Positions 4,484 through 61,950 of a stretch of DNA of 64,000 nucleotides are shown here, in pieces. The translations under genes and the position numbers were made by a program. This DNA is from an uncultured virus (IMG/VR IMGVR_UViG_3300017724_000001) (lineage: Duplodnaviria; Heunggongvirae; Uroviricota; Caudoviricetes; Crassvirales), in the IMG/VR virus record IMGVR_UViG_3300017724_000001. One strand, 5' to 3'. Below the pieces are notes generated by a model that saw only the letters and a program-made list of their open reading frames with translations, was not told where the DNA came from and did no database searches. How positions within the stretch are numbered: position 1 is the first letter of the stretch; each line of letters opens with the position of its first letter.

Positions 4484-7400
4484 ATGGAAAACGAATCTAA
4501 CAAGCCATTACAGCAAGAGATTAGAAATCAAGAAAGACCTGCCCCAAGCATTATACCTGAAGGGCAGTTCCGCTTTGAGCCTATGGCAGAAATGTTTGAA
4601 ACTCCTGAAGAAAACTTTAATGACTATTTGCTAAGTAGTAGTTTAGCAGCAGATGATATTTCCGGTGTTAATGAATATAAAGCAGATATAGATAAGTATG
4701 GTATAGGTGCTATGGCTTCATTAGGAGTTGGTGTACCTAGTTTTGCAACTGATACATATAATCCAATAACTCAAGATATACCTAAAGAAAATGACTATAC
4801 AAAAGTTAAGAACGTATTAACTTTAGATCCAAAACCATTTGTTGATAGCAAAATAACTCCTGTTTTTTCTGGTATGAGGCAGGGTCAATTTTTGAGATAT
4901 TATAATCATCCTGAATTTGATAAGTTAGGTTATACACCATATTCTAATATGGAAAACTTTTATAATGCAAACTCTACTATCTGGGATGACATGACTAGAA
5001 TGAAAGGTCAATGGATGTCTCTTGCTGGCACTGGTTTAAACTCTGTATATGAGTTTGCTACAGGAGGAGATTACTTAGCTCCTGATTTTGAAACTGCAAC
5101 TGAGTTTGAAGATACCATGGGAATTGCTTCATCAACCAGAGGAGGTGCTGGTGCTTTCTTTAATAATTTAGCAGCTAACTCTGCATATACATTTGGTATA
5201 TTAGGTTCTATTGCTATTGAAGAAATTATCCTAGCTGGTGTTTCTGGTTTATCTGGAGGTACCCTTGCTCCAGCTGCTGGTGCAAAAACTGTTGCAAATG
5301 TTGCTAAAGCAGGAAAAGCTATATACAGTTTTAGTAAGCTGTTTGATAGAACAAGAAAGATACTTCAAAAAGCAAAACAGCTTGAAACAGCAAGAGATTT
5401 TTATAATGCTTCTGTTACAGGTGGAAAAATGGTGCTTAATACATTAGGAAAAGGGTTTACACCAAACACAGTAAAAGCATTCCAAAACATGAAGACAGCA
5501 CAAAATGCTGGGCAAAACATGACTAATCTTGCTAAAATGAGTTCTGGCTTTGGTGGTTTCTATAGAGATCTTAGAGCTGTAAATTTAGCAATGGCTGAAA
5601 GTAAATTGGAATCAGGTATGGTTTACAACAAGGTTCTTAAGCAAGGTCTTACAGATGCTAATAACTTTAGTGGCGGACAAGGTATTACTGATGGTAGAGA
5701 TGTATCTAATGCTGCTAATCAAGCTGCATTTAAAACATTATTGGGTAATGCACCTCTTATATATGCTAGTAACTGGTTTGTTATTGGTAATGCTATGGGT
5801 GGTTTTCAAAGAGGAATACAAAGGACTTTGGGTTCTACATTTCAGAAAGGCATAAATAAAAATATTGTTAACACCGCAGGTAAAAAAGTTATCAATGGTG
5901 CAGGTGAAGTAATTAAAAGCCCATTTAAATATGTAAGTGGTGGATTCAAAAACACTTTAGCAAAAGTTAAAGCAGGAGGTTTTAAAGGTATTGTTGGTTC
6001 GGGTGGTATAGCTATGCTTGATTATTTTGCAGCCAATGTTGCTGAAGGTATACAAGAAATTGGACAGGAAGCTATTTCTGCAGCAACAGTAGGTTACTAT
6101 ACAGAAGTACTTAACAATCCAGCTCAAGGTGGTGAAGCACTTAAAAATCAAATGATACTATCAGCAATGGGTGATCAGTTTTCATCTGAGGGAGCAGGTG
6201 TGTTTTTATCTGGTTTTTTAATGGGTGGTTTAGTGCAAGGTCCTCAAAAGTTATTCTTTCAAGGTATACCTTCTATATATAACTATGGTCTTCAGGAAGC
6301 TGGTATAGGTTTGGCAACTAAGTCTCAGAAAGAGGCATATGCTGAATACAAGACTAATAGAGAGAACATGATTAATAAGGTTGTTGAATCTTATAACAAA
6401 TCTTGGGATGCTCAAGCAATAGATCCTTCTAGTTTATTTGATGTAAACAGATTAAACTTTATGATTCAGAAAGAAGCAGCTGAAAACATAAAGGGTGCTC
6501 TTGATATATTTAATTTTGTTGATAGTGCTGATAGAGCTAAATTCCAACAATACTATACAATGTTTGCTGGTAATGGGTCACAACATTTTAAAGATCAATT
6601 AAAAGGGTTTTTAGAATTAACAGATGAAGAGTTAGCTCAAGCATTTCCAGGCGTATCTAATAAAGATAAAAAAGATGGTAAGCTAAGAGGACGTATTAAT
6701 GATATGCTTGTGGGTATTGATAAGATGGAGGAGTCTTATAATTTAAACAAGGATAAATACAAAAACCCTTTTAACAAAAATAAATTTAATCCTAAGACTC
6801 AACAAAGAGAATACATTAGAGAAATGTTAAATGAAGAAGCATATGAACATGTGCGTTATTTATATATGTTTACTAATGATGGATTTACAAGAGCATTAGA
6901 AAGAGCAGATAGTATCTACACTAAATTACAATCTGATCCGCTATTTGATAAAATGTCAGCAAATGATATAACAAACTTGCTTGATGAAAAATCAATTCAG
7001 AATGAAATAGATATGCTTAACCTTGAGATTATTGCAACTGAAGGTTCAGATAAAGGTATTGGAGAATCTAATAAAACAAAAAAAGAAAAAATAAAAAGAC
7101 TAAAAGCCATTCAAAAAATCATTACTGATCCAAAGAATAGATTTAAGAATGGAACCTTTAAAAGAAACAAACTTTTAAAAGGAAAGCTTAGAACTGAATT
7201 TAGAAACTATGTAAGATTCATGGCATCTGCTGCTGGTACATTTGCTGATGAATCAAAAATAGATGCAGCTCTTGAGCAAATTGTTGACTACGGTGCTTTA
7301 AAAGGAAGAGCACGTGTATATGATAAAGCTATTCAATACATGCAAAATCCAGAAAAGTTTTCTGAGATTCAACAAAGACAATACGAAGTAAACAAAGAGA

Positions 7401-10400
7401 TTTATAATCAGCGTTCTAAGATAACTGAAGCAATGTTAAAGCAGTATGTAAGTATTGTTGAGGCAAATGAATTAATAAATCAGTTAGGTAAAATGGGTGT
7501 ATACCCGGCTATTTCACAAACAAAAATGTTTTTGGAAACAGGTAATGTAACATTTTTACAGGACTTCTATGATGATAATGGTAAGGTTGTACCAGAAGTA
7601 CATTCAGTATTATTTAAACAAATTCAAAGTCACCTAAACGTTTATAAAGAAACTAGAGCAGAAAGCACTCAACCTGAAGAAGTAAAAACAGAAGAAGAAA
7701 TATCTATTGAAGAAAGTGAAGAAACTAGATCTGCACTAGATATGCTTTTAGATAAAGCGGGAATAGATATTAAAATTGATGTAAGTGTTAATAGCCCTTT
7801 ATTAGTCAATGCTTTAAAAAGAAGTTATAATAAATATAGAGCAAAACAAGCAAGATTAGGACAGCCTATTTTAGATAGCACTGAATGGATGAATACTGCA
7901 GAAGCAGTGAATATTAGAAATGTTGTTAATGCTATAAAAAAGGTTTGGGCATCAGGAAAACCTGAAGTAAATGTTGAGGGTATATTAGAGTTTATCAATC
8001 CGCTTGAAAAAGATGTAATAAAAAATGATACGGGATTTGAAGAGTTTCTACAAGACCCTGAAGTTTTAATTAACAACCCTGTTATAACATCAATACTAAA
8101 TCAATCAGGTGTTGAAATGTCTGATATTGTTGAAAGTAAAGATGTTAGTTTAGAAGAAGGGCAAGCGTTAGAAGATACACCTCAAAGAGTTTTCTATAAA
8201 GAAGGTGTTACTGCAGATATATATAAGATATCAGTAGTAGATAACCAAACAGGAGAAATTGTTGAAATGTATAAACTCCTGGATAAAAAAGGCAATGAGT
8301 TATCAGATGATATCTTAGACTTTATAGATACAAATTTTAAATCAGTACAAGGAGTATTTTTATCTGGACAAGGTAAAACAGCTAAACAAGCATTAGAATC
8401 TTTGAATGCAAATCTAGTAGACTCCACAACTCCATTTAGTTTTGACGGTGTTGATGGATTAACATATGGACAAATAGTATACAAAGATGGTGTAAAATAT
8501 ATAGTTGTTCAAGATCCAAGGTTTTCTAAAAAGTATGGAGAAAATCAAAAACTTAAAGTAATTAAAGAATCTGATAATACAGGTCCTATTTCAGAAAGAA
8601 AGTTTTTGTTTATTCCACAAGGTGAGTTTAATGGCAAGTTTACTTTAGAAGAAACTACATTTAACTTGATTCCGGATACAGTAACTAAGATTCAATTAAA
8701 AGATTTAACTTCATTCTATCCTCATGTAAACTATACTGAAGGTGGTGTGGGTACTGATAATGCTAAAGCAATAGAAAGATATAATGCTATTCTTAGTTTG
8801 CTTTCTCCTGAAGAAATAGCAGGATTGCAATTGGTTGTTATGAGAACTTCTGATGGCGGTAACAATACAGGTGCTTATGTTGCTAAAAATAGAGATGGTG
8901 AAATATATAAAGAAGCAAACCCATTAATAGATAGATTAGTAAGTAAATACGTCATTGGTATAAGAGCAGCTACATCTGATTTACGTGATAGTATTAACAT
9001 AAAACTAGTTGAGATGGGCATTGAACCATCCAATAGTGAGGAAGGAATTTTTGCTTATATAAACAATGAATCTTTTTTAATTAGAGATCAACGTACAAAC
9101 AGTCCTATAGATCCTAGATCTATGACTAGAGAACAAGCAAGCAATGTTATACTAGCAGAAAAAGGATTAAACAAAGAACAAAAAGCTGAAGCACTAGAGA
9201 AAGTGCACAGAGCGTTTGCAATAAATGCATTAATTGTACAAACATTTGATAATTTAAATATAGGTAGTGAGCCTTCATATTTTATGGCAGACTCTAAGGA
9301 GCTTCCTTTTAATATAAACTTAGTAGCCGGGGGTGGTCAAGTTGCATATGCTAAATCTAGAGAAACGGTTTATCCTATATCAATGGATGCATTGCAGTAC
9401 AATACAGCAGATCAAGAAGGTAACTTATTTGTATTTGATTTAAAATATGATAAAGAGACAGGTAAAAGAATTTATGACTTTACTACTAATTTAAAAGGTA
9501 AAGAAAGAGAGGCTTTAGAAGAAGCAATAGAGCAACAACTTAGAATGCAGAATCAGTGGGATAACTTACTGGATGCAGGAAAGGGTACTGACAGATATCT
9601 AGCTATGGTTAGGTTGCCAAATGGTACATACGCAAAAGTAAATTTAAAACCGGTTGAATATACTAATACTGAATTACAAGAATTATATGTAGATGTAGTT
9701 GAGGCAGCTAAAAGAATAGGTGCTATAAAAGATTCAGAAAAAAGTATGGAAGAAGCTGCAAAGTATAATGCAGAATTAAATGAAAGATTGTTTTTAAGTA
9801 GTTATTCGGGTAACTTAATAGAGTTAAATGTAGGACCTGACGGATCTATTTTTATTTCTTTAGATAATACAAGCACTAAAACAAGTTTAAATGTTGGTCT
9901 AAAACCAGAACAAGTTGAAGCAAAAGAGTCTGCTAAAGATGTATTTGAAGACTTACTTGCAAAGTATAATCAAGATAAAACAGTAGATGATTTAAATGCA
10001 GGATTAAAAAATAAAAACTTTAGAAAATCTTTTGCAACAGGTGTATCTCCTGATGTAATATATGAAAATAGTACTACTGAAGTTTTACCACAAGTAGTAA
10101 AAAATCAAACAGCAGAAGTTTCTGCTTCATCAGATTCTATACAATTATCACGTGATATTGCATATATTCCTAATACAGATAAAAGCAATGAGTTAGAAAT
10201 GGAATCAGCAGTAGGTAGAGATAGACCTACATCTGCAGAAGCGGAGGATTCCGTATCTGATATGGAAGAAGCTGAGTTTGATAAAATGGTAGATGATGTA
10301 TCTAATAATAACTTTGGAGAATATCAAGAAAATATTGATCATATTTCTAATGCAATACTCAGAGGGATTGAATTAACTGAAAGAGAAAAAGAGTTAATGA

Positions 10401-13400
10401 AAGACTCAAACTTTAAACAGTTAGTTAACCTTATGGTGATTAAAGGTGGAGGAGCCGGTGCACTAGCTGTAGAAAAATCAGAAAAAGAAACTACTCTTGA
10501 TAGTGTAAAAAATGAGCTTAGTGCTTTAAAGCAGAAGCTAGAAGAAGGCCTAACTACCAAGAAGGATAAAATAAAAGCTATTAAAGAAAGCAAGGAGTAC
10601 CAAGATTTATTAGCTAAAAGAAAAAAACTAGAAAGAGGAGCTAATAAGCTAGTACAAGCAACATCAGAAGTAGAGCGTATAGAAGACTACAATGAGTTTT
10701 TAGATTGGGCTAATGATAATTTACCAGATATAATTGGTGTAGAAGATCTTTTGGTTCTTGCTGACAATGGTATTTCTAAAGGATATGAAAGAGTAGGTTC
10801 TTTTGTATTAAATTTAGATAGGGTAGCTAATGGAGTAGATGTAAACGGTATTATATATACAAGCCCATTAAGCCCTTATAAATACCATGAGGCATTCCAT
10901 AGTATATTTAGAACAGTTCTTACTCAAGGGCAGATTGATAGATATAGAAGTATTGCTAAAAAAGAATTAAAAGCCAAGTATGGATCTAAGTATAAAATAG
11001 AATTAGAAAAGTTTAAGAATTCAGCTGAGCAATATAAAGAAATGTCTCAACTTGAGTTAGAAAATGAGTTTGCTGAAGAATATATGGCGGATGAATTTGA
11101 TGCATTCAAAATGAATCCAAGAAGCTCAAAAATAGATACAGAAATAAAATCATTTTTTACTAAGTTAATAGAGTGGATTAAAGCTGTATTTTCTAAGTAC
11201 TCTTCTACAGAGTTACTAACGTTATATGAAAATATAGATTCAGGTAAATTTAAAAATGCCCCTGTACAACTTAATGAATTTACACAACTTGATGACTCTT
11301 TAAGCGGTGCGTTTAGTATTGCCAATGCATTAGTTAGATATGACACAGCATCTAAAGCTGTAGAAAATGGTGAGCCTGCAGGAGAGCTATATGTTGACTC
11401 AGATGTAATAGATCCTTTAATTAGATCTATGGCTGGTATGTTTATAAATAGAGTAAATGAATTATCATTAACTGAGAAGTCATATAACCCTACAAAAGTA
11501 TATAATGATCTTGAAACAGATTTCATGATTATGCTTGATCCAGAGGGAGAAGCCAACAAAGGTTTTTCTGGAACAAAGAAAGCATATCTTGAACAAATTG
11601 ATATGGCATTTATAAATTATCCTGAAGACATTAAAAAAGAAGTGTTTGCTTTGATTAATGTTATTTCTGATATGGATCAGGCTAATCAATTAAAAATAGA
11701 AAATGTTGAAGAGACTTCAGGTATAAGAAGTACAAGTGACTTTAATAAAGATGCAGCAGAGATAGGTGGCTTTAACTCTTTATCATATAAAGTAAGATCA
11801 TATATAGCTACTACAACAATGGTTGATACTGACTTCTTTGGTAAGACAGAATTAACTGAGGGTGAAGCATTGATTGTTCCTGTTAAATTTCAAGAAGCAT
11901 ATACTAGCTTATTAAAATCAGTTTCAAATGAAAGTGATCCTGTAGTTATGCTTAAAAGAATGTATGCATATTCTAGATTAAATCCACAAGGTAAGGCGGT
12001 TGTAGATAAATTATTTAATGATACGGGATTAACAATAGAAGGTCTAACATCAGAGCAACCATTTAAAGATGTTAAAGATGGTTCATTATTGATATCAATA
12101 TTAAAAGGATTTGAAAACTACAAGGTTGATTATCTATTTAATGAAAGAGATGGTAATGGTAACTTATTAGTATATACTGCATCTGAAAGAGATGATATTA
12201 ATGCTCAGTTAGATGAATGGGCTCAAGCATACATAACAAAAAGAAAACTTGCTGCAGCTAACCCTAAGAGATTAAAGCAATTCTTAAGCCTTACTAAAGA
12301 TATGAAAGAGGCAATGACTTCATATCCAGAGTCAACATCTTTAGCATATCAAATGTCTAGAGAGTTTTCTCAACGCATGTTTGATCTAATAGGTATTAGA
12401 TTAAGCCCTAACTACATTGCATATAGTATTGCTAAATCTAAAACAGAAGCTGACTTAAAAAACAGTCCTGAATTAAAAGCATTGTCAGATGGATATACAG
12501 AGGAACCAATAACAAATGACTTATTAGATCAATTATATTCTGGGTTTAGTACAAATGCAAATATATATTCCACTAAACAGGATGGTATGGCATCAAGACT
12601 TACTAAGCTTAGTATTTCTAATGCTGCATTTGATGAAACAATTGGATCATCAACATTTATAAATCCTAATGGTGATATTGTATATGCTCATCAATTACCT
12701 ACATATCATTTAAAAAGCATTGGGTCATTAAATAACAGATCTAAAATTGAACAATTAAAAAGTGAAGACTTTTTATCAAATAATTATTTGCTTAATAGTG
12801 AAGCATTTTTAAACTTATCTGATCAGAATAGACTAAAAGTAATAAGAGTTGCTGGTAGTAAAATTAAAGAGCAAATTACAAACGCTGAAAATGATCAAGC
12901 TGTTGAAGATATATTAAATGAATCTATATCAAAAAATAAATCAACACAAAGTTTTGGAGAGTTTACGCCACAAGAGTTTGCTATAGCTATTATAAACAAC
13001 TATGTTTCTAATTTTAACAGAAGAACGGGTAGAGTTGAAACTGTAGAAGGAAAAGGCGGCCAACAAGTTGCAATGGCTCCTGTATTTTTAAGAGTAATGG
13101 AAGCAGCTAACACTGGAGACCTAACAAGTTTGCCTGTTATTAAAGCAGTTACTGAAGTTAACGGTAATGTTGTTCTTACACCGGAAGCTATTAATGTATT
13201 TATAAATAGTATAGAGGCTGAGTTTAATAGAATTAGCAAAGAAACATTAGCATTTGAAAATGCACCCGGTGATATTCAAGGATTTAATAATGAAAAAAGT
13301 GATAGGTCTGATAAAGGTAGAGCATTCAAATTTACTAATAATGGATTATTGCTTTCTGAATCAACCAAAAAAGCACTAATACAAGTTGCTATTGATAAAG

Positions 13401-16400
13401 CTAAACAAGGAGAGACGGTTTCTTTTAAACAAGCTGTGTCACTAGCTGTAGGTGTAACAAATGCATCTATTAGATCAGAAGTTAATAAAAGCTTAGAGCA
13501 AAGCTTTAAAGAATTTGATGATGTGATTACATCATTAAAAGCAAAAGATAATCTTTCTACGCAAGTATTAAACGGATTAACTATTGCATCTGGTGTTTCT
13601 AGAGGTGCTGTTGAATTATCACAACTTAAGTTAAATCTTACAAATGATTCAGCATATAACTTAAAACAAATATTTTTTAACAACTATATCAATTCTAAGT
13701 CAATGAATGATTTACTGCTTGGTGATCAAGCTGTATCTTTAAAAGACATGGTTGATAAAGTTAAAAGAGCAAAACTACAGAATGCTGCATACTATAGTGC
13801 CTATAGTGAAATTACGGATCTTAATAAAGGTATTACTCATTCTAGTACTAATTTTGATTTATATCCTTTCCAAGATCCAACAGCTAAGTCTGATTTTACA
13901 GGTAATGATATTGAATTAGCAGATGCTCAAGTTTATATTACTACAAAAGGTATAAGATATTCTACTTTTGCATTTGGTAGATTAAGTCCTGCAATGGCAA
14001 GTATGCTAGATAGCATTGATAAGGGTGAGTCTATAAATGCTGATAGAGCATGGGGTTCTGCTGAAAACTCTATTAATTTAGCAAAGCAACAGGACTTTAT
14101 AAACTCTAAGAAGTTTGTATATATGGATGGTAAAACTGCTTTAAAAATGTCAGTTACCGTTTTAACAAAAGAGTATACATCCAACTATAATCAAAAAACA
14201 GGTACGTGGGAGGCTAAACCTAACATGCAACAGCTTCATTATTTACGTGAACAAATGGAAGCTAATGAAGAAGCAAATAAAAACTTTGCAATGGCGGCTC
14301 CAGTTTCAGCAATAAAAATGCTAAAACAGGGGATTAATTTACTTGAGTCAAATGTATTTGATACAACACAAGATTTGCAATCTATTAATTTAGACACATC
14401 TTACTTGGGTCTTCAAGTTGTAAACCCTTCTAACAAGATTATAGTAACTGATATGAACCAAATCAAGGAGCTTATAACTTCTGAACAAAGTGATGATGTA
14501 GAAATTACTATAGAAGGAAGCCCTGAGTTAAATACTGTAGGAAAAGTAAGAGACGCATACAACAAAGCAGTAGGAGAAAGAGTAACTTTAAAATACAAAA
14601 ACAAAAGAAATTTAGTATTTAGTTTTGACACGGCACTTGATGAGTTAGAATTATCAAAAGAAAAAGGAGCCATTACCCCAAATCTTGCCGCATTTTTATT
14701 AGAAGCACAAAAAGGTCTTATGGCTTCAGGAGCTGCATCAAACTTACTTGAGTTCTTTGGAGTTGAAGATGGTGTTCAAAAGTATAATTTAAACAGTCCG
14801 GTAACAGCTAAAAAGTTTGAACAACTTTTCTTGACTTATTTTAGCAAAGGCACACTAAGAGAAAAAGTACCTGGTACTTCAGTTGCATTACTATCTTCAT
14901 TTGGTCATAAGGTTTATAGACGTGTATATGAAATGAAAAACGGTATGCCTATTAGATCTGAGATTGTAAGAGAAAGTTCTTATAATGGAGAGAGCCTAGA
15001 AAACATAAATGATCTTGTTGATGGTAAACATGATGGCATTCTTGTTCTTGATGTTCTTAGAACAGGGGTTATGGAATACCAAAATGATGATGTTGTAAAT
15101 GGGGAGCCTACAGGAGTAAGATATAGTGAAACTATTATGCCTCCTATGGATAGAAATGTAATGGAGTTAATTCAAGAAAATTCAAATGCTTCAATACCAG
15201 ATGCAGTAGCCAAGTTGTTTGGAGTACGTATACCAACACAAGATAAACATTCAGCTGTAAACATAAGAGTTGTTGATTTTATGCCTGTATATTATGGTTC
15301 AACAGCTATATTTCCAAAAGAACTTGTAGAAATATCAGGAGCGGATTTTGATATTGATAAAGTATATGCATTGGCAAAAGAGTACTATTTAGATAGCAAT
15401 AAAGAATTTAAAGCTTACGGTTCTGGTAATTCTTATTTTGAGTATATAAAGTACATGAATCAAAAAGCTTCTGAACCTAATAATATTTATAGTACATCAT
15501 CTTCTTTATACAAGGAGGAAACCTTGGCTATTAGAAGAGAAAACTCTTTGAGTGATTCTGAACAAAATAGAGTTACAGACAAACAAGGTGTAAACAGTAT
15601 ATCAGAAGAAGCTCTTAGAGCAATGTTAATATTGGGTCTTCCTGTTACTAAAAAACAATTTGAAGAATATTCTAAAAAGTTTGGATCACCTAACGAGGCG
15701 GTTTTAAACAATAACATTTTAGATTATAGATATGTATTAGCAGGTAATGTTGGTGTAACAGGTGAAACACTAAAGACTATTGATCAAGATGCTGGTGAAG
15801 GTAAATCTGATTTGCCTATTGCTTATCAAGCAGCTGACTTAAAAATATTAGAAGATTTATTTGATGAGCTTTCTAATGTTGAGGGTATAGAATTATTTGC
15901 AAGCAGAAAGGATTCTGATGTAGATATTGATACACTTCATGGAATGATAAAAGCCTTTGAAGCAAACAAAGGAGCTGCAATTGGTGCTATTGTTAAACCT
16001 AATTTAGCTTTAAGTTTATTGCGTGAGTACAATATTAAATTAGCTAGACCTATAAAATTTAATAATAATACATATGATGGGTTTACTAAAGACAAAATAA
16101 ATGGTGAAAGAATACAAGATATTATTTCTACTCTAGTAACAATGGAAACCGATAATGCTAAAGAACGTTTAATAGCAAAGTTTGGTCTTAATATTCATGC
16201 TGTTGGTTTAGTTGGTAATATGGTTTCATTGGGAATCCCATTAAGAACTTCAATTTTATTAGTAAATTCTGCTGAAATAAGAGACTTGTATGATCAAGCT
16301 TTAAATAAAGAGGACAAATTTGATGCAGGTTTAGATACTCTTTTAACAAAGCGTATTGCGTCTTTAGCATCATTAGTTGCTAAGGAAAAAGAAGGTGGTA

Positions 16401-18307
16401 ATAAACCGCCATTTGTAAAACTATCAGATGAGTTTTTAGAGACAGCTGTAGACAGCACTGAAGATTTAACTAATAATGAAAGACTTCAAATACTATTTTT
16501 ATTTGATAGACTTAATAACATTAAAAACTTTACAGGTAAAATAAATAAAGTAACAAGTCTTACTCAAGGTCTACCTAGTTCAATACCAGAAATGAAAGAT
16601 GCTATTGAAACAATTACTAGTTTGTTTGATAAGGAAGCACCTATGAATATCAGACCTATTTATGGTAAGAATAGCAAAACGTGGCAGAGTACTTATTTAG
16701 AAATATTTGGTCAAATACATAATGATCTTTTACCTAACACTATTTTAACTATGAGTCAGGACTTTAATGATATACTAGAGCCTACTTATAATCAAATGAA
16801 TGTTGACTCAAGAGGTTTTGATAATGTAGCAAAAAATGGTATTGAACAAGATCTATTATCTTATTTAACAATTAAGTCATACCAACATCTTCTTAATAAT
16901 AGCTCTGGTAATTCTTCTGTAGAAAACACATTGCTTTATCCTGGTCCTGTAGGTACAACTAACTTATCATTGATTAAAAAAATTGAAGACTTACAATTGC
17001 TAAGAGCTGAACAAGGTGCAGAGCCTAATTACTTCTTAGATAATTTTGTAGGTACTCAATATGCCGGAACTCAGGGTAATAACACAGGAATGAATTTAGT
17101 AAAAGCGGATACATGGAGAAGACTTAATGCATCTAATAAACTTGATTTACAAACATCCTTTGCAAAACTATATGGTTCACTTGAGACAAGAGAAATAGCT
17201 GAAGACATTCTGCATTACATGATGGTTAAAGATGGATTGCAGCTTAAGTATGGAAGTCTTATGAGTGCAATGAGTCCTTTTATTATGAATAAATATCTTA
17301 AGAATGTTGGTTCTGTAGAAGCTGCACTTAAAGGACAAGTAGAATTTGAAAGTGTCTTTGGTATCTCTAAAGAAGAAGTGATGAAAGATTTTAAATATGG
17401 ATACTTACAATCTAATGTTGTAGGACCATTGCTTGTCACTTATGATGCTTCTAGTCTTGATGAAGGCTTTACTTTTGACCCAGTTTCTAGACCTAATAAG
17501 TTTACTATTACTTCTGAGAGTTTTGAACATGTAAATGCAAAAGAGTTTGTAAGGGTTAAAGTTGAAAGACAAGGTAGAGATTTCTATGTTTTGTTTAGAT
17601 TGCTTGCTAAAGATAACCCTAATGCAAGGGTAACTGAATACTTAGAAGTTCCTTCTATGGGTTCTAATCAACAATTTGGTGGTGGTTTTGTAGGAGGACC
17701 TAGACTTACATATGATCAAGCAAGAAATGTAGGCAAAGGAACTACACAAAATAGTTTACCTCAAGATAGAGCTGCACAACTAGAACAACCAGCACAACAA
17801 ACTAGTGAGGTTGAGTATCCTGTTGATACTAATCTTGGAGCTATACTAGAAGTTAATGAAGTATTAAACTCTGACTCAGCAATAGTTAATCAAACTACAG
17901 ATTCTGTAACAGTTAAAGCAGATATAGATGCAGCAGAAACAAATATATCTGATATGGCAAAAATAATGGCTGAGTTGTCTGCTAACACAGATAGTGCTAT
18001 ATTTGATGAGACAGGAAATGCTATTATAGAAGATACTGATATGAGCATTCCAGAAGCTACAGAACTTGAACAACAAGAGCAAGAACAACTAGAACTTGAT
18101 CTTTTTGCTTCAGAAGAAATTTCAGAAGCCTCAAGTTTAGTAGAATGGTGGGATGCAAATGTAGAAGGTAATAGTGCTGCTTTAGAAAAGCTTTCTGGAG
18201 AAAATATAAAAACACTTGATGATGCAATAGCTTTATACGGTGATTTATTTTCACAAACAGAAGAGGGAGAACAAGAAATAATTGAGAGACTTAAATGTCT
18301 TATATAA
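4484..18307 (+). CDS. Giant virion-associated DNA-dependent RNA polymerase polyprotein (4607 aa) with N-terminal hydrophobic segments and a zincin metallopeptidase motif
   Basis: GADFDIDK catalytic loop (DFDID at 15344-15358) is preceded by GVRIPTQ, as in phi14:2 gp66-type RNAPs. HEAFH (10886-10900) is followed by EEYMADEF. Gly/Ala-rich hydrophobic stretches occur in the first ~600 aa. Confidence 0.9.
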   Translation: MENESNKPLQQEIRNQERPAPSIIPEGQFRFEPMAEMFETPEENFNDYLLSSSLAADDISGVNEYKADIDKYGIGAMASLGVGVPSFATDTYNPITQDIPKENDYTKVKNVLTLDPKPFVDSKITPVFSGMRQGQFLRYYNHPEFDKLGYTPYSNMENFYNANSTIWDDMTRMKGQWMSLAGTGLNSVYEFATGGDYLAPDFETATEFEDTMGIASSTRGGAGAFFNNLAANSAYTFGILGSIAIEEIILAGVSGLSGGTLAPAAGAKTVANVAKAGKAIYSFSKLFDRTRKILQKAKQLETARDFYNASVTGGKMVLNTLGKGFTPNTVKAFQNMKTAQNAGQNMTNLAKMSSGFGGFYRDLRAVNLAMAESKLESGMVYNKVLKQGLTDANNFSGGQGITDGRDVSNAANQAAFKTLLGNAPLIYASNWFVIGNAMGGFQRGIQRTLGSTFQKGINKNIVNTAGKKVINGAGEVIKSPFKYVSGGFKNTLAKVKAGGFKGIVGSGGIAMLDYFAANVAEGIQEIGQEAISAATVGYYTEVLNNPAQGGEALKNQMILSAMGDQFSSEGAGVFLSGFLMGGLVQGPQKLFFQGIPSIYNYGLQEAGIGLATKSQKEAYAEYKTNRENMINKVVESYNKSWDAQAIDPSSLFDVNRLNFMIQKEAAENIKGALDIFNFVDSADRAKFQQYYTMFAGNGSQHFKDQLKGFLELTDEELAQAFPGVSNKDKKDGKLRGRINDMLVGIDKMEESYNLNKDKYKNPFNKNKFNPKTQQREYIREMLNEEAYEHVRYLYMFTNDGFTRALERADSIYTKLQSDPLFDKMSANDITNLLDEKSIQNEIDMLNLEIIATEGSDKGIGESNKTKKEKIKRLKAIQKIITDPKNRFKNGTFKRNKLLKGKLRTEFRNYVRFMASAAGTFADESKIDAALEQIVDYGALKGRARVYDKAIQYMQNPEKFSEIQQRQYEVNKEIYNQRSKITEAMLKQYVSIVEANELINQLGKMGVYPAISQTKMFLETGNVTFLQDFYDDNGKVVPEVHSVLFKQIQSHLNVYKETRAESTQPEEVKTEEEISIEESEETRSALDMLLDKAGIDIKIDVSVNSPLLVNALKRSYNKYRAKQARLGQPILDSTEWMNTAEAVNIRNVVNAIKKVWASGKPEVNVEGILEFINPLEKDVIKNDTGFEEFLQDPEVLINNPVITSILNQSGVEMSDIVESKDVSLEEGQALEDTPQRVFYKEGVTADIYKISVVDNQTGEIVEMYKLLDKKGNELSDDILDFIDTNFKSVQGVFLSGQGKTAKQALESLNANLVDSTTPFSFDGVDGLTYGQIVYKDGVKYIVVQDPRFSKKYGENQKLKVIKESDNTGPISERKFLFIPQGEFNGKFTLEETTFNLIPDTVTKIQLKDLTSFYPHVNYTEGGVGTDNAKAIERYNAILSLLSPEEIAGLQLVVMRTSDGGNNTGAYVAKNRDGEIYKEANPLIDRLVSKYVIGIRAATSDLRDSINIKLVEMGIEPSNSEEGIFAYINNESFLIRDQRTNSPIDPRSMTREQASNVILAEKGLNKEQKAEALEKVHRAFAINALIVQTFDNLNIGSEPSYFMADSKELPFNINLVAGGGQVAYAKSRETVYPISMDALQYNTADQEGNLFVFDLKYDKETGKRIYDFTTNLKGKEREALEEAIEQQLRMQNQWDNLLDAGKGTDRYLAMVRLPNGTYAKVNLKPVEYTNTELQELYVDVVEAAKRIGAIKDSEKSMEEAAKYNAELNERLFLSSYSGNLIELNVGPDGSIFISLDNTSTKTSLNVGLKPEQVEAKESAKDVFEDLLAKYNQDKTVDDLNAGLKNKNFRKSFATGVSPDVIYENSTTEVLPQVVKNQTAEVSASSDSIQLSRDIAYIPNTDKSNELEMESAVGRDRPTSAEAEDSVSDMEEAEFDKMVDDVSNNNFGEYQENIDHISNAILRGIELTEREKELMKDSNFKQLVNLMVIKGGGAGALAVEKSEKETTLDSVKNELSALKQKLEEGLTTKKDKIKAIKESKEYQDLLAKRKKLERGANKLVQATSEVERIEDYNEFLDWANDNLPDIIGVEDLLVLADNGISKGYERVGSFVLNLDRVANGVDVNGIIYTSPLSPYKYHEAFHSIFRTVLTQGQIDRYRSIAKKELKAKYGSKYKIELEKFKNSAEQYKEMSQLELENEFAEEYMADEFDAFKMNPRSSKIDTEIKSFFTKLIEWIKAVFSKYSSTELLTLYENIDSGKFKNAPVQLNEFTQLDDSLSGAFSIANALVRYDTASKAVENGEPAGELYVDSDVIDPLIRSMAGMFINRVNELSLTEKSYNPTKVYNDLETDFMIMLDPEGEANKGFSGTKKAYLEQIDMAFINYPEDIKKEVFALINVISDMDQANQLKIENVEETSGIRSTSDFNKDAAEIGGFNSLSYKVRSYIATTTMVDTDFFGKTELTEGEALIVPVKFQEAYTSLLKSVSNESDPVVMLKRMYAYSRLNPQGKAVVDKLFNDTGLTIEGLTSEQPFKDVKDGSLLISILKGFENYKVDYLFNERDGNGNLLVYTASERDDINAQLDEWAQAYITKRKLAAANPKRLKQFLSLTKDMKEAMTSYPESTSLAYQMSREFSQRMFDLIGIRLSPNYIAYSIAKSKTEADLKNSPELKALSDGYTEEPITNDLLDQLYSGFSTNANIYSTKQDGMASRLTKLSISNAAFDETIGSSTFINPNGDIVYAHQLPTYHLKSIGSLNNRSKIEQLKSEDFLSNNYLLNSEAFLNLSDQNRLKVIRVAGSKIKEQITNAENDQAVEDILNESISKNKSTQSFGEFTPQEFAIAIINNYVSNFNRRTGRVETVEGKGGQQVAMAPVFLRVMEAANTGDLTSLPVIKAVTEVNGNVVLTPEAINVFINSIEAEFNRISKETLAFENAPGDIQGFNNEKSDRSDKGRAFKFTNNGLLLSESTKKALIQVAIDKAKQGETVSFKQAVSLAVGVTNASIRSEVNKSLEQSFKEFDDVITSLKAKDNLSTQVLNGLTIASGVSRGAVELSQLKLNLTNDSAYNLKQIFFNNYINSKSMNDLLLGDQAVSLKDMVDKVKRAKLQNAAYYSAYSEITDLNKGITHSSTNFDLYPFQDPTAKSDFTGNDIELADAQVYITTKGIRYSTFAFGRLSPAMASMLDSIDKGESINADRAWGSAENSINLAKQQDFINSKKFVYMDGKTALKMSVTVLTKEYTSNYNQKTGTWEAKPNMQQLHYLREQMEANEEANKNFAMAAPVSAIKMLKQGINLLESNVFDTTQDLQSINLDTSYLGLQVVNPSNKIIVTDMNQIKELITSEQSDDVEITIEGSPELNTVGKVRDAYNKAVGERVTLKYKNKRNLVFSFDTALDELELSKEKGAITPNLAAFLLEAQKGLMASGAASNLLEFFGVEDGVQKYNLNSPVTAKKFEQLFLTYFSKGTLREKVPGTSVALLSSFGHKVYRRVYEMKNGMPIRSEIVRESSYNGESLENINDLVDGKHDGILVLDVLRTGVMEYQNDDVVNGEPTGVRYSETIMPPMDRNVMELIQENSNASIPDAVAKLFGVRIPTQDKHSAVNIRVVDFMPVYYGSTAIFPKELVEISGADFDIDKVYALAKEYYLDSNKEFKAYGSGNSYFEYIKYMNQKASEPNNIYSTSSSLYKEETLAIRRENSLSDSEQNRVTDKQGVNSISEEALRAMLILGLPVTKKQFEEYSKKFGSPNEAVLNNNILDYRYVLAGNVGVTGETLKTIDQDAGEGKSDLPIAYQAADLKILEDLFDELSNVEGIELFASRKDSDVDIDTLHGMIKAFEANKGAAIGAIVKPNLALSLLREYNIKLARPIKFNNNTYDGFTKDKINGERIQDIISTLVTMETDNAKERLIAKFGLNIHAVGLVGNMVSLGIPLRTSILLVNSAEIRDLYDQALNKEDKFDAGLDTLLTKRIASLASLVAKEKEGGNKPPFVKLSDEFLETAVDSTEDLTNNERLQILFLFDRLNNIKNFTGKINKVTSLTQGLPSSIPEMKDAIETITSLFDKEAPMNIRPIYGKNSKTWQSTYLEIFGQIHNDLLPNTILTMSQDFNDILEPTYNQMNVDSRGFDNVAKNGIEQDLLSYLTIKSYQHLLNNSSGNSSVENTLLYPGPVGTTNLSLIKKIEDLQLLRAEQGAEPNYFLDNFVGTQYAGTQGNNTGMNLVKADTWRRLNASNKLDLQTSFAKLYGSLETREIAEDILHYMMVKDGLQLKYGSLMSAMSPFIMNKYLKNVGSVEAALKGQVEFESVFGISKEEVMKDFKYGYLQSNVVGPLLVTYDASSLDEGFTFDPVSRPNKFTITSESFEHVNAKEFVRVKVERQGRDFYVLFRLLAKDNPNARVTEYLEVPSMGSNQQFGGGFVGGPRLTYDQARNVGKGTTQNSLPQDRAAQLEQPAQQTSEVEYPVDTNLGAILEVNEVLNSDSAIVNQTTDSVTVKADIDAAETNISDMAKIMAELSANTDSAIFDETGNAIIEDTDMSIPEATELEQQEQEQLELDLFASEEISEASSLVEWWDANVEGNSAALEKLSGENIKTLDDAIALYGDLFSQTEEGEQEIIERLKCLI

Positions 18308-57968: not shown

Positions 57969-58518
57969 CTTCTTGAAAATTTAGTTCTGTTTGTTTTACT
58001 TTTTTAAAATAAGTTATGAATCTCTTTTGTATGTTAAGAGCATGCAGAGGACTAACGGTAGTTTCTACAAACTTAAGGTTTTTATCATCATCATGATACA
58101 TTAAATTCACTTTTATAGTAGAATAAAACGGGTCATAAGGATCAGAACCCCAAGAAGAGTCACCAACTACTTGACCATATACATAATAGTCACTATACTC
58201 ATCACCTTTACCTAGTAATCCCATGTCTTCAAGAACATCTAATTCAAATTCACTGCCTTGATGATAGTTTGGTGGTACTAGTCTAACATAACTACCAATC
58301 TCTGTTGGTACAAAAGTTCTTTCTGTTAGCATAAGATGTATTATAGCTTCTAGAGCTGAATCTTTAACTTCTTTAGATATTATATCTGTTATAAATTTTA
58401 AATTGTTTGGTTTATTGATAGATTTTTGATCAAATAAACCTGAAAGGATGCCTTTTAATACTTCATCCTGTACGTGATATTGTTTTGCCATTGATTTTAT
58501 ATTGTAATCAAAGACCAT
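57934..58518 (-). CDS. Hypothetical protein (likely start MAKQY)
   Basis: ORF track. Confidence 0.6.
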   Translation of the reverse strand: MVFDYNIKSMAKQYHVQDEVLKGILSGLFDQKSINKPNNLKFITDIISKEVKDSALEAIIHLMLTERTFVPTEIGSYVRLVPPNYHQGSEFELDVLEDMGLLGKGDEYSDYYVYGQVVGDSSWGSDPYDPFYSTIKVNLMYHDDDKNLKFVETTVSPLHALNIQKRFITYFKKVKQTELNFQEDGKDINGTIEL

Positions 58519-58642
58519 ACTGCAAACAAGTATGAAATGTAACAGTAATAGTCTTTGATCTGATTAAGAACACAGCCTCAATACCTAGTATTAATATAAT
58601 ATATAATTACTGGTATTGTTAGTGGTCCATATACGAGACTTT

Positions 58643-58954
58643 TTATTTTCTTCTTTGGAAGATTATAGTTAAGAAAGGCAACTTCAATTCCCAATGACGA
58701 GTTACTTTCTCTATGTCAAGACCAATTCCAGGTCTTGCGTTTACTCTCATCCTAGGCAAAAGGTATGTTCTATCCATATGAATAGCATAGAAGATTGCAT
58801 TGATGAAAGTTAATGCGGTTACAATACCAAAGGCAACTATAAGAATAGGTGACCAAGGTGTGTAATAAACTAGATTAACTAGTACTACTGTCATAGCAAA
58901 AGGTAGAACAGCTACGAAGATTAACTTGATAAGATACTTGAATAAATATTTCAT
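58643..58954 (-). CDS. Membrane protein with two TM helices
   Basis: Hydrophobic N-terminal half. Confidence 0.6.
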   Translation of the reverse strand: MKYLFKYLIKLIFVAVLPFAMTVVLVNLVYYTPWSPILIVAFGIVTALTFINAIFYAIHMDRTYLLPRMRVNARPGIGLDIEKVTRHWELKLPFLTIIFQRRK

Positions 58955-58979
58955 GATATATAATTTAATTGATTAATGA

Positions 58980-59150
58980 TTAACGACCCCATTTGGATCT
59001 CTTGTGTCTCTTTTTAGGTTTCCAATAGTTCTTCTTTGCAAAATGCTTTTTACTTTTCTTGACAGAGCATTTACGAGAAGAACCACATGATTGTAACATT
59101 GGTCCACCTATGAATAGTAATAGAATAAAATATAAGAATTGTTTTTTCAT
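58980..59150 (-). CDS. Small highly basic lipoprotein (56 aa), not in ORF track
   Basis: MKKQFLYFILLLFIGGPMLQS-CGSSRKCSVKKSKKHFAKKNYWKPKKRHKRSKWGR; signal peptide with LQSC lipobox. Confidence 0.65.
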   Translation of the reverse strand: MKKQFLYFILLLFIGGPMLQSCGSSRKCSVKKSKKHFAKKNYWKPKKRHKRSKWGR

Positions 59151-59171
59151 AACGTTTTAGTATTAGATTTT

Positions 59172-59207
59172 AAAAAAGCCAGTCTGTTTTATCCAACTAC
59201 AACTGGC
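59172..59207 (-). terminator. Intrinsic terminator at the end of the non-coding region
   Basis: Minus strand GCCAGTTGT...ACAGACTGGC followed by TTTTTT. Confidence 0.65.
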
Positions 59208-60150
59208 ATGGCTGTCCTATGAATACTCATAGTTAGGAATAAGTCATTTGATTATTAGGTGAGACCAACACCTACCAACATACTCATTGGTTGATTAGAC
59301 ACTATAGGTAATTAACCTACTTCACTTCATGTGTGTCACACTAGTCTAGAATTACCTAGACACGTATCTTTATATTGTTCTTGAGTTAAAAATAAAGAGC
59401 CTGATTACCTCTTAACGACCGTTTACCCGGTTGACGGTGACTGTTACATATTCAACAGACAAGTCAAATACACGGTTTCAGGTTGTCAAACCTTACAGGT
59501 ACATTGACCCTAACGTATACGAGGTTAAGCTGACAAACTACTCCTCTTGGTGTACAAAGTGACACCCAACACTCCCGTTGCCACGGGTTTAAAAGATATA
59601 ACTAATAGAGATATTCACTCCGCTATTTACCTCCATCCATGCGGTAGGATTATTAGTTATTATGATAAAGCTAATAACCATAACCTGTAGTCTTATTGGT
59701 ATTGTTGATCCACATTCCTCTAGTTATGGTATTAGCATATTGAGTTTAGATTACTGTAAGTTCTCTCTTACGCCAGCAACTCACTGGATTAGACCAACCA
59801 TGTTTATACAGGAATTTATCTATGTGCCTGTTTTAATATTGCGGGTAATATGACTCTTATCCTATAGAGGAAGAGACAAAGACTACCCTTGTTATATTGT
59901 TGAGTGTAATAGTTACGCTTGTAGCTACGTTAGCTATATTTATATTATTAGTAACACTCATAGTTACAAGAGTGGTAAAAGGTGGTATTTTGTGGGTATA
60001 AGACCTCACATTCAGAGTGACACACACAAAAAAAATAAAATTACCACACTTTTATAACTTAATTCAATTGTTTTTGACTCTATGTAACAATAGTTAGTAG
60101 TTATTGCTTGAGAGTAGTAACATTCTGTACTAATTCTATTTTTATAAGTG
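59172..60150 (-). ncRNA. Candidate structured non-coding RNA(s), family unknown
   Basis: About 1 kb without a credible ORF, dense in hairpins, bounded by a conserved motif upstream and a terminator downstream. Confidence 0.4.
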
Positions 60151-60188
60151 CTAAACATAGTTTGGGAGCAGACGTGCTGAAAAGCACG
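60150..60188. promoter_or_regulatory. Conserved motif plus GAAA hairpin, copy 1 (candidate virion-RNAP promoter)
   Basis: GCTAAACATAGTTTGGGAGCAGA-CGTGCT-GAAA-AGCACG. Confidence 0.55.
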
Positions 60189-60214
60189 CCCACCCACAAG
60201 CTACTATGTTACAA

Positions 60215-60676
60215 TTACGCATCTACAGTTTCCTGCTTAAACGCATTCAAGCTCTCTACAGCTACAGTAGAGTTGTTAGCCTCTCTTATCTCAGCACCAT
60301 TGGTGTGCTGAATAAAAGTAGACTGAGCATTAAGGTCTGAGGTAAACTCTGTAGTTCTGTAAATAGGTTTATCCCCTTTCATACATACTATCTTTGAGTC
60401 TCCGGCATACTTTAATTTGTATGTCAAATCCTTATCATTGAATGGCTCAAGTTGCTCACGCACAATAATCTTACCTGTCAATGGTTTTGAGTGGTCCATA
60501 GACTCAAGCAAAGCTATTGGGCCTAATACTAATGCTGACAAAGATTTATCTGCATACCAACCATTTCTAAGTTCAACGGCCTTTTGTTCATAGATTACAA
60601 AGCCTATATCTTTGTTCTTTGTTTTACTGATGAATGTTCCGTCTTCATTCTTGCGTACTGTTACTAAATTGTTCAT
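60215..60676 (-). CDS. Hypothetical protein, first gene of the minus-strand block (paralogue of 56482..57096)
   Basis: Clear motif-level similarity to 56482..57096, but without the acidic tail. Confidence 0.7.
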   Translation of the reverse strand: MNNLVTVRKNEDGTFISKTKNKDIGFVIYEQKAVELRNGWYADKSLSALVLGPIALLESMDHSKPLTGKIIVREQLEPFNDKDLTYKLKYAGDSKIVCMKGDKPIYRTTEFTSDLNAQSTFIQHTNGAEIREANNSTVAVESLNAFKQETVDA

Positions 60677-60751
60677 AATGAAATTATTTAATTATTAAAT
60701 TGATTACAATAGTGATAAGGCTATTGCTGAAAAGGTTAAACGGCTTATCCC

Positions 60752-60790
60752 GCTATATATAGTTTGGGAGCAGAGGCATTGAAAAATGCC
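60752..60790. promoter_or_regulatory. Conserved motif plus GAAA hairpin, copy 2
   Basis: GCTATATATAGTTTGGGAGCAGA-GGCATT-GAAA-AATGCC. Confidence 0.55.
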
Positions 60791-61010
60791 GTATATGCAC
60801 ACAGTGAGTCCATCATATATATACTACTGATGAATACAAACAAATCAATGATGTATTGATATTCAGTAGATACCTGACGTAGACACAGTAGCACTACACT
60901 ACTCCGCTTTGCTACCACACAATAGTCATACATTCTTTTTTTTTGTACAACTTTATGCAGTTAGCAAGTGCAGTTAGAGTTCCTATGCAAACATAGGGGG
61001 TACCCGCACT

Positions 61011-61033
61011 GCAAAATTTAGTTGGGGAGCAGA
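61011..61033. promoter_or_regulatory. Conserved motif, copy 3 (no intact adjacent hairpin)
   Basis: GCAAAATTTAGTTGGGGAGCAGA matches copy 1 at 19 of 23 positions. Confidence 0.45.
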
Positions 61034-61193
61034 TCCTATATACCTCTTGAAAGTGCCAAACACACAATTTTTTGGTGGGGCGTAGGGACAATTTTACAGT
61101 AGACGGGGGGATGTTGTGGCTCAAAAATTTTTATAGGACGGGGAATTTTAGTATATTGTTTTTATAGAAGAGTTACTCACTAAACAAAATACT

Positions 61194-61517
61194 ATGGCTG
61201 ATTGGGATGATAACGGGGAAAAAGAAACTGGTGGTTTATCTGACATACAGCAAATGCAGTTAGATGCTATTATATTAGACACAGCATACAACAATGCATG
61301 GATGTTACTGACCGGGGAAATTACTTTTGAAGAATTAATATCAACTCAATTTAGTGAGGGAAAAGAGTTAGTGATGGCTTATGATCCAGACAATGGACCG
61401 AAACTTGAAGAATTAGAAAATATGATAGCGTACTTCGTAGAAGAAGAAGACTATGAGAAGTGTGCTGCATTAAGGGATATAATGTTTAAAGCGTATCCGG
61501 AAACTTATGAAGCTTAG
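61194..61517 (+). CDS. Acidic protein with UVR (UvrB/UvrC)-like motif
   Basis: LENMIAYFVEEEDYEKCAALRD. Confidence 0.65.
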   Translation: MADWDDNGEKETGGLSDIQQMQLDAIILDTAYNNAWMLLTGEITFEELISTQFSEGKELVMAYDPDNGPKLEELENMIAYFVEEEDYEKCAALRDIMFKAYPETYEA

Positions 61518-61522
61518 AAATT

Positions 61523-61732
61523 ATGGCATTAAAAAGAAAAACAACTAAAAAGAAAAAAAGTACCGTAAATAGTTCAGGGAATTATACTAAACCGGGAATG
61601 CGTAAAAGATTATTTAATTCTATCAAGGCTGGTAGTAAGGGTGGTGCACCTGGTCAGTGGTCTGCACGTAAAGCACAAATGCTTGCTAAACGTTACAAAG
61701 CTAACGGTGGTGGATACAAATCCAAGAAATGA
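61523..61732 (+). CDS. Basic protein resembling the N-terminal half of DUF5872-like proteins
   Basis: YTKPGMRKRL...IKAGSKGGAPGQWSARKAQMLAKRYKANGGGY. Confidence 0.7.
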   Translation: MALKRKTTKKKKSTVNSSGNYTKPGMRKRLFNSIKAGSKGGAPGQWSARKAQMLAKRYKANGGGYKSKK

Positions 61733-61950
61733 TGAAAGACCTAACCCTAAATATTGGTAATATAATCTGGATCATAGGTATTATATTCACAATGGGTATA
61801 GCATATAGCCAAATAGCACAATTATCAGATGATATGGTTGTACTAGAAGCTAGGCTAGAAAAAAAAATAAAAATAATCAATGAATCGGAAGATAGGATTG
61901 TAGAATTAGAGAAAGAAATTATTAGGCTACAAGAATCAAGATGTAAGTAA
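61729..61950 (+). CDS. Small TM plus coiled-coil protein
   Basis: One hydrophobic helix followed by a heptad-like segment. Confidence 0.6.
   Translation: MMKDLTLNIGNIIWIIGIIFTMGIAYSQIAQLSDDMVVLEARLEKKIKIINESEDRIVELEKEIIRLQESRCK

Follow-up and report, generated by a model that had tools for sequence, protein, structure and literature searches.

Introduction

CrAss-like phages are among the most abundant known viruses; the structure of the RNA polymerase (RNAP) that they inject has been solved, and the promoter for that RNAP is not known. In the Cellulophaga crAss-like phage phi14:2, according to the accessible part of a preprint, the whole replication module is early and rifampicin-resistant, a behavior ascribed to the injected gp66, which in vitro transcribes only single-stranded or denatured DNA and does so non-specifically; the two long non-coding regions heading this block are among the most abundant early RNAs (preprint). 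In crAss001, as far as the accessible part of its description goes, the early genes form a short operon at the genome end and replication is classed as 'middle', so that equating a replication block with early expression is an analogy and not a rule. Coliphage N4 offers another point of reference: its virion RNAP reads a few promoters that head the early genes close to the genome end entering first, each with a hairpin that has to be extruded from supercoiled DNA with the help of SSB. In promoter P2 the hairpin stem is 5 bp long and the 3-nt loop has -11G at its center (PMC13492108), and the base of this stem lies about 4 nt from +1 by our own reading of the printed oligonucleotide (PMC13492108). 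Here we have analyzed a 64,000-nt stretch of an uncultured virus of the Crassvirales (IMG/VR record IMGVR_UViG_3300017724_000001), hereafter called the window, which harbors a short element in three copies between positions 60150 and 61033. An initial annotation of this DNA had proposed that the three copies, two of them followed by a GAAA hairpin, head the early block and may act as an N4-like hairpin promoter or ejection signal for the RNAP encoded in the same window.

We found that the element is a real, conserved and polar cis-element family situated at or inside the replication block of a clade of marine crAss-like phages, as the initial annotation had held for its place at the head of that block. 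What is invariant in this family is a 15-nt core, a 6-nt A/T spacer and a G, and not the hairpin. We tentatively read the element as a promoter for leftward early transcription, and weigh this reading below against an RNA-processing element, a rightward promoter and a site acting at the DNA level.

Results

The sequence ATAGTTTGGGAGCAGA occurs exactly on the + strand of the window at 60157-60172 and 60759-60774, and the third copy is a variant, TTAGTTGGGGAGCAGA, at 61018-61033, with 2 mismatches to ATAGTTTGGGAGCAGA; taken as a 23-mer from 61011, it matches the motif at 19/23 positions. Both the sequence and a mismatch scan thus confirmed the two identical copies and the 19/23 variant noted in the initial annotation. 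A fourth match with at most 3 mismatches, at 4638 inside the 4607-aa open reading frame (ORF), was taken as chance (0.69 matches expected; four reached in 2/100 shuffles). With a 24-position weight matrix built from 55 related contexts, the three sites scored 35.0-40.3 bits in the 64 kb, compared with 9.2 bits for the runner-up site and peaks of 1.9-11.1 bits in 20 shuffles.

Read on the minus strand, the common unit is TCTGCTCCCNAACTA, followed by six A/T-rich bases and then a G (54/55 contexts). The core logo from the 55 distinct contexts is T-C-T-G-C-T-C-C-C-N-A-A-C-T-A, with 11 of the 15 positions invariant; the 6-nt spacer contains G or C in only 35 of 330 letters, and the core is followed by G at +7 in 54/55, C at +8 in 43/55 and a purine at +9 in 52/55 contexts. 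Across related marine phage contigs the core is almost unchanging while the flanking sequence diverges freely, as exemplified by a hypervariable stretch immediately left of copy 1, next to which the core stays in place. The GC at 60150-60151 is conserved in relatives, as is unit 1 as a whole. The invariant unit is therefore the core with its 6-nt A/T spacer and G. A contiguous recognition block, an A/T-rich segment, a purine and a fixed orientation before genes, which together mark a phage-specific (T7-like) promoter, were all found (55-context logo; 31 copies; units of a TARA contig described below), and the architecture would accordingly be that of such a promoter, with a recognition block, an easily melted segment and an initiating G. 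The starts predicted from this layout are the G opposite 60151 for unit 1, 60753 for unit 2 and 61012 for unit 3.

Relatives were collected by pattern scans of IMG/VR, metagenome contigs and whole records, and a locus was assigned to the family on the basis of at least two copies, the block-C signature (Table 1) or an abutting GRAA hairpin. By these rules 25 of 80 metagenome loci belong to the family, the other 55 being single chance-like matches. The nearest record, G001 (114 kb), shares 77% of the window's sampled words, and the complete G001 and G002 (114 and 116 kb) have exactly three copies each, at this locus and on one strand, with a reversed-pattern control yielding no copies in either. 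Three copies with spacings of ~600 nt (960 in G004) and ~260 nt characterize the lineages of the window, G001, G002, G004/5, G008 and G016; G023 and G013 have two copies 520 nt apart; and G020, G018 and G019 have four family copies spread over 11.5 kb, where an extra 1-mismatch match inside a giant ORF was treated as chance. On a TARA contig (L305), four copies are packed into 1.7 kb, three of them with hairpins.

The hairpins R1 and R2 (Table 1) are perfect 6-bp stems without any gap to copies 1 and 2. Relatives have the R1 stem variants TGTGCT, CGTGCAT, CGTGGT, GCCTGT and CACGTT and the R2 stem variants AGGCATT, TGCATT and GGGTTT; counting the two of the window, there are ten stem sequences in total, each with its exact complement except for one T.G pair on the + strand, and the loops are GAAA or GGAA only. 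In an alignment of 21 distinct hairpin copies, 126/126 cells pair, 41 cells are double-changed and five of the six pairs change on both sides, whereas slid controls pair at 19-61%; this alignment was fitted to a covariance model and so leans towards that model. An unfitted alignment of nine rows gave the same picture, with 54/54 cells pairing, five of six pairs changing on both sides and slid controls at 31-50%. The closing pair is T-A in 21/21 copies, and the stem starts right after the core in every hairpin-bearing copy scored for offset. The claim that GAAA hairpins abut copies 1 and 2, with structure kept over stem sequence, was well founded; the search of relatives and check of stem covariation that the initial annotation had proposed did find the motif and covarying stems, except that the G020 and G023 lineages lack the hairpin altogether. 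In all copies of these two lineages, and in copy 3 of every lineage, the core stands without a hairpin, and the covariance model scores such hairpinless copies at ~18 bits vs. 35-56 bits for full units. The hairpin is thus not the common denominator of the family.

Because the stems covary in sequence, recognition of the stems as double-stranded half-sites is unlikely, and a folded single strand is indicated, with the loop type and the T.G pair pointing to the + strand as the strand that folds. For leftward transcription the template is the + strand, which bears the GAAA loops. A stable DNA hairpin could form on this strand upstream of the core, by virtue of a GRAA loop closed by T-A. The zero spacing between stem and core argues for joint recognition of the two. 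DNA folding energies fail to separate the two strands of hairpins 1 and 2, copy 3 gave fold z-scores of +0.27 and +0.71, and no known RNA family was matched between 58500 and 61500 (0 Rfam matches at E up to 1). The R1 and R2 stems are followed by TCTGCTCCC on the minus strand and by GCCCACC or GTATATG on the + strand; an intrinsic terminator, comprising a G+C-rich stem and a T run, was rejected since no T run follows the stems.

One serious rival is an RNA-processing reading of the whole unit. A long transcript from the right of core 3 would be cut, ended or stabilized at each unit; the hairpin would then protect the 3' end of the piece upstream, and recognition or cleavage would take place at the core together with the A/U stretch, in the manner of the RNase III sites between T7 early genes or of a polymerase-specific terminator. 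In keeping with this scheme, the hairpins follow upstream minus-strand stops by 1-27 nt, the units stand between consecutive cistrons, one RNA-run contig crosses unit 1 unbroken, and the actual promoter could lie in the conserved block C sequence found upstream of core 3. However, the loops in minus-strand RNA would be UUUC or UUCC and the non-Watson-Crick pair would become C.A; there is no U-tract, and neither hairpin is among the two sites listed by a terminator scan of 58500-61600. Core-only copies placed 23 and 29 nt ahead of ATGs lack a hairpin that could give protection, no cistron lies upstream of units 2 and 3, and a G behind a fixed A/T spacer is rather the mark of a start site. On balance we consider an intercistronic RNA element unlikely.

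As to gene context, the three copies in the window, G001 and G002 lie at the head of a minus-strand block, which in the window extends left to ~34.7 kb and constitutes the replication module, with genes for DNA polymerase, primase, DnaB-like helicase, Sak4, exonuclease, a superfamily-2 helicase and a helix-turn-helix (HTH) initiator-like protein. The first gene of this block (153 aa; Table 1) is a real coding sequence, because its differences to relatives concentrate on codon position 3 (31-33 of 43-48 differences); its product has no Pfam or PHROGs match and an Atlas score of only 0.85. The core of copy 2 is 83 nt upstream of the ATG of this gene at 60676, and copy 1 lies 42 nt beyond the stop of that gene, with one and the same conserved non-coding segment coming after it in all lineages; no convincing ORF was found in 59151-60214. 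Rightward of the first gene, 60677-61193 is a divergent intergenic region, and the + strand genes that begin at 61194 encode small basic proteins common to marine podophages and then a peptidoglycan-binding amidase.

This polarity holds across the family. All 31 copies in 11 loci are intergenic (within no ORF of at least 80 aa) and share one orientation. From copy-2-type cores to the first minus-strand ATG the distance is 82-85 nt, or 42 nt in G008; the block-C copy of G023 is 64 nt before a minus-strand ATG; and the extra copies that the G020 lineage has within its replication block precede ATGs by 23, 29 and 75 nt. In the TARA contig, two cores are 40 and 92 nt before minus-strand ATGs, a third lies at the contig end and the fourth is a block-C copy. 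The G020 core at 34098-34112 (L227, G020:C1:19000-37000) resides in the 53 nt that separate the DnaB-like gene from its neighbor; these genes are 91% and 74% identical to their window homologues, which overlap by 4 nt and have no motif between them. Judged from this comparison, the G020 gap copy would be a lineage-specific gain of an internal start.

The divergent position also raises the issue of a site acting at the DNA level, bound by a replication initiator or a primase (where it would belong to an origin together with a conserved segment that is transcribed or A/T-rich), by terminase, or by a phage regulator of the divergent region. The motif does lie at the turning point of cumulative GC skew, it adjoins the HTH replication-initiator-like gene and conserved A/T-rich non-coding segments, and block C is conserved as plain sequence in all lineages, with no consensus fold for block C or copy 3. 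Yet the skew simply follows gene direction, and the element is asymmetric and always in one orientation relative to genes. Its copies are hundreds to thousands of bases apart with genes in between, unlike iterons or cos/pac repeats; lineage-specific copies stand just before ATGs; and the stems covary, a freedom incompatible with a protein that reads half-sites in double-stranded form. Near the motif, the ends of contigs scatter between 99 and 2441 nt, and the 'terminal repeat' of G001 is a 72-nt exact overlap, so that this record is an assembly circle. We regard a DNA-level site as quite unlikely.

With respect to the protein that may read the element, a sigma-70 scan found nothing at the motif sites. 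The primary sigma factor of Bacteroidota has the consensus -33 TTTG / -7 TAnnTTTG. By inspection of the logo, such a promoter was rejected: the minus-strand core has no TTTG, and the + strand reads TAGTTTG, one base short, or TAGTTGG in copy 3. The reader is probably other than the host primary sigma holoenzyme, as judged from these sequences, and a factor made after infection is unlikely because the motif precedes the very first genes of the block. The catalytic region of the 4607-aa protein (Table 1) is 22-28% identical to crAssphage 'RNAP catalytic subunit' genes (E down to 6e-13; 105 phage records), and for this reason we consider the phage a distant marine crAss-like; the protein has no sequence match in PDB or PHROG. 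Four of five motif-bearing records have a homologue with the DFDID motif, at 100, 61, 49 and 47% identity over the catalytic 901 residues, and no match was found in the fifth, G008, which is 58% complete; the homologues in relatives span 3410-4705 aa. A T7-like RNAP (PF00940) was not found in G001, G002 or G020, a weak negative given that the search control matched nowhere. By analogy with gp66 of phi14:2, the virion-type giant DFDID RNAP is the likeliest candidate for the reader. The link to an RNAP drawn in the initial annotation hence stands as far as the presence of this protein in the window and in four of five motif-bearing records is concerned, and its assignment as the reader is kept here as a proposal.

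The left hairpins of the two copies, which the initial annotation had described as shared, are both present in the window and fared differently in relatives. Near relatives have lost the one of copy 1 (60088-60106, CAATAG/TTATTG, with five Watson-Crick pairs and a G.T pair). The one of copy 2 (Table 1) covaries, with the variants TAAATG/CATTTA, AGAATG/CATTCT and TATACA/TGTATA counted by eye, and in G016 the odd pair is A.C on the + strand and G.U on the minus strand; from this pattern it looks like a feature of the mRNA leader.

Leftward of unit 1 are two non-coding segments, seg1 and seg2. These are 97.1% and 96.7% identical, respectively, to G002, as opposed to 76-87% for flanking genes, and seg2 is 84-88% identical in G008, G016 and G023; several small genes are inserted between the two segments in G002. 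The consensus fold of seg2 has z of about -3.5 on both strands, so the strand is not told by it. We surmise that seg1 and seg2 may either encode early non-coding RNAs of the kind made by phi14:2 or belong to an origin.

RNA evidence came from four runs of four studies (24 listed), as unstranded contigs. Contigs of these runs coincide with seg1 (depths 25.8 and 15.8). A marine metatranscriptome contig, 59926-60731 (depth 23), stops 22 nt inside the predicted transcript of unit 2, with a depth of ~1 beyond; a contig of another study continues to 60854, a third run covers the region evenly, and contig ends at 60133 and 60138 fall in a strain-variable stretch. These contigs are compatible with the promoter reading proposed below and were not counted as evidence for direction or start.

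Two further blocks surround the motif. Block B (60824-60907) occupies the stretch from core 2 to core 3; four lineages conserve it, and it contains nested inverted repeats, CTACTGA..TCAGTAG around ATCAAT..ATTGAT. R2 follows this internally palindromic block, which unit 3 would transcribe, as would suit a hairpin closing the preceding unit; block B may itself give rise to a small structured RNA, transcribed from unit 3, or form a cruciform in the DNA. Block D (61095-61193) has the conserved run TTTATAGGA .. AGTATATTGT .. TTATAGAAGAGTTAC, 30-90 nt before the + strand ATG at 61194, and is a candidate for a host-type promoter and leader of the + operon.

Farther away, the + strand genes at 61523-62485 encode small lysine-rich proteins (phrog_17747, the DUF5872-like phrog_14910 and phrog_7595) and have 70-80% nucleotide identity to podophages of Pelagibacter, Roseobacter, Methylophilales and Puniceispirillum; these identities suggest genes common to unrelated marine phage groups. 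A tRNA scan found only one cluster, at 55348-55591 on the minus strand (Met-CAT, Leu-TAA, Arg-TCT), inside the replication block, where RNA-run contigs of other organisms pile up. In two RNA runs from different studies, one contig each joins the tRNA-Met end at 55423 to 59180 through GTTAA and leaves out 3756 nt. This junction, of which the shorter side measures only 28 nt, probably stems from a relative whose genes are arranged in another order, or from a chimera.

Table 1. Positions of the units, hairpins, conserved segments and ORFs discussed in the text (window coordinates).
Feature	Position	Strand	Description
Unit 1 ('P1')	60150..60172	-	core TAGTTTGGGAGCAGA 60158-60172 (minus strand TCTGCTCCCAAACTA); A/T spacer 60152-60157; GC 60150-60151
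Unit 2 ('P2')	60752..60774	-	core 60760-60774; spacer 60754-60759; GC 60752-60753
Unit 3 ('P3')	61011..61033	-	core TAGTTGGGGAGCAGA 61019-61033; spacer 61013-61018; GC 61011-61012; without abutting hairpin
Hairpin R1	60173..60188	+	CGTGCT-GAAA-AGCACG; abuts core 1; ends 26 nt beyond stop of 153-aa gene
Hairpin R2	60775..60790	+	GGCATT-GAAA-AATGCC; abuts core 2
Left hairpin of copy 2	60707..60726	-	CAATAG/CTATTG, 6 pairs; in presumed leader of first early gene
First minus-block gene	60215..60676	-	153 aa; between units 2 and 1
seg1	59384..59663		non-coding; second highly conserved segment
seg2	59833..60048		non-coding, 110-325 nt leftward of unit 1; more conserved than adjacent genes
Block C	60996..61093		~100 nt conserved around core 3: GGGGGTACC, core, ATACCTCTT, GCCAAACACACAAT, then G-runs
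Giant ORF	4484..18307	+	4607 aa; single DFDID at residue 3621

Discussion

From the sequence of the element, its conservation, polarity and structure and the genes around it, we infer, tentatively and with slightly less than even confidence, that the element is a promoter specific to the phage, from which early transcription runs leftward. Its reader is probably the giant DFDID protein, and the hairpin would be an upstream addition on the template strand that some copies do without. The three copies would then belong to a promoter family peculiar to the lineage, used to start transcription of the early replication block on the minus strand. The recognized unit on the coding strand would be TCTGCTCCC-N-AACTA, at about -21 to -7, with the 6-nt A/T-rich stretch (-6 to -1) easing the opening of the DNA and transcription starting at the conserved G. 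We postulate that units 3 and 2 serve as tandem starts ahead of the first gene, and that unit 1 restarts transcription into the conserved non-coding segment. The abutting hairpin (6-7 bp, closing T-A, GAAA or GGAA loop on the template + strand) may be an optional upstream module, either extruded as DNA and bound together with the core, or also closing the preceding transcription unit.

Several observations weigh against this promoter reading. No transcript 5' end is seen in the RNA runs, and by our own tally a minus-strand ATG lies within 100 nt of only ~9 of the 21 lineage-level copies. The hairpins, at 1-27 nt beyond the stops of upstream genes, are placed as terminators or processing sites are. 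The accessible part of the phi14:2 preprint has its authors finding no common motif upstream of early transcripts, and our motif is absent from the first 9 kb of phi14:2, which have no similarity to this region. As regards direction, the opposite reading fits the logo equally well, as GC, six A/T, TAGTTN and a GGGAG start; the distance from core 3 to the first + strand ATG is fixed at 158-161 nt (181 in one lineage); and the simplest explanation of a GNRA-type loop with a T.G pair on the + strand would be an RNA of that strand.

These last points are the basis for a rightward promoter or 5' leader, in which transcription would start at the + strand GGGAG, the GNRA hairpin would stabilize the RNA 5' end and the copies would be tandem starts for the + block at 61194. 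GAAA and GGAA loops and the T.G pair would be natural in such an RNA, and an A/T stretch followed by GGGAG recalls T7-type starts. Nevertheless, only core 3 has a downstream gene when read rightward, the other copies running antisense into real genes: copy 1 through the 153-aa gene, and the G020 copies into DnaB-like and other replication genes, 3-11 kb from any + strand gene. In addition, no other + strand operon, in the window or in the two complete genomes, has the motif, and a separate conserved block nearer the + gene, block D, could hold the promoter of that operon. We therefore rate a rightward promoter as very unlikely. Where the logo fits both directions it is gene context that decides, and on this context a leftward function is favored.

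In its most far-reaching form, which we consider somewhat unlikely, the leftward promoter would be the first recognizable promoter of a crAss-like two-barrel virion RNAP: a bipartite signal of core, spacer and +1 G, accompanied in some copies by a DNA hairpin that extrudes from the template strand, has a sheared G..A tetraloop and is bound with the core, convergent with N4, and with one copy driving a conserved early non-coding RNA comparable to those of phi14:2. In the literature searched, no motif strings were found in print and no crAss-like early promoter was described; the final phi14:2 paper and its primer-extension supplements lie outside that search and might bear on novelty. A candidate signal defined this sharply makes promoter-specific initiation by the crAss-like class of RNAP testable in vitro, with natural variants at hand (with or without hairpin, ten stems, two loops). 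The signal is nearly invariant even though the catalytic region of the relatives' polymerases is only 47-61% identical. If the reading is true, the element would help to annotate the early transcription units of uncultured marine Crassvirales, together with their early non-coding RNAs.

How does this element compare with known systems? Promoters of the T7, T3 and SP6 type have a contiguous conserved block of ~23 bp, an A/T-rich segment before the start, an initiating G and few, strictly oriented copies, and contain ..CACTATA or ..CACTAAA. The element described here shares these general features, and the 3' half of its core (AACTAT or AACTAA) resembles the T7-type sequence over ~6 bases, a likeness to be taken as a lead only. 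It differs in that a T7-like polymerase gene was not found in three complete or near-complete relatives, with the weakness of that search noted above. The lambda nut site consists of boxA and a boxB hairpin with a GNRA-like loop, one per early transcription unit, and here too a linear conserved box is followed by a short hairpin with a GNRA-like loop. In contrast to nut, this order of box and hairpin is present only on the + strand, antisense to adjacent genes, and core-only copies exist; no N-like protein was identified in our comparison. Where the block begins, the locus is laid out as in phi14:2, with long non-coding stretches on either side of a small gene, and it differs in having a common motif, one not reported for early transcripts in the accessible part of that preprint and absent from the first 9 kb of that phage.

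The comparison with N4, which the initial annotation had put forward, holds for the covarying hairpin and the position at the head of the replication block, but not for the geometry, the polymerase family or the constancy of the hairpin. By membership we rejected an N4-type promoter: the N4 enzyme is a T7-like single-subunit RNAP, whereas the candidate here is a two-barrel DFDID protein, and N4 has a hairpin in every promoter, whereas here it is missing in copy 3 and in two lineages (G020 and G023). Compared with N4 P2, the stem is 6-7 bp, the loop 4 nt, and the stem base 21 nt (15-nt core plus 6-nt spacer) from the predicted start. What the element has in common with N4 promoters P1-P3 is three copies heading early genes, a conserved sequence joined to a short hairpin of variable stem, a purine-rich loop on the template strand and, if the proposed reader is right, a virion-carried polymerase, the crAss-like counterpart of which works on single-stranded or denatured DNA alone. 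If the most far-reaching form of our reading is true, these likenesses would amount to convergence with N4, although the two polymerases are unrelated.

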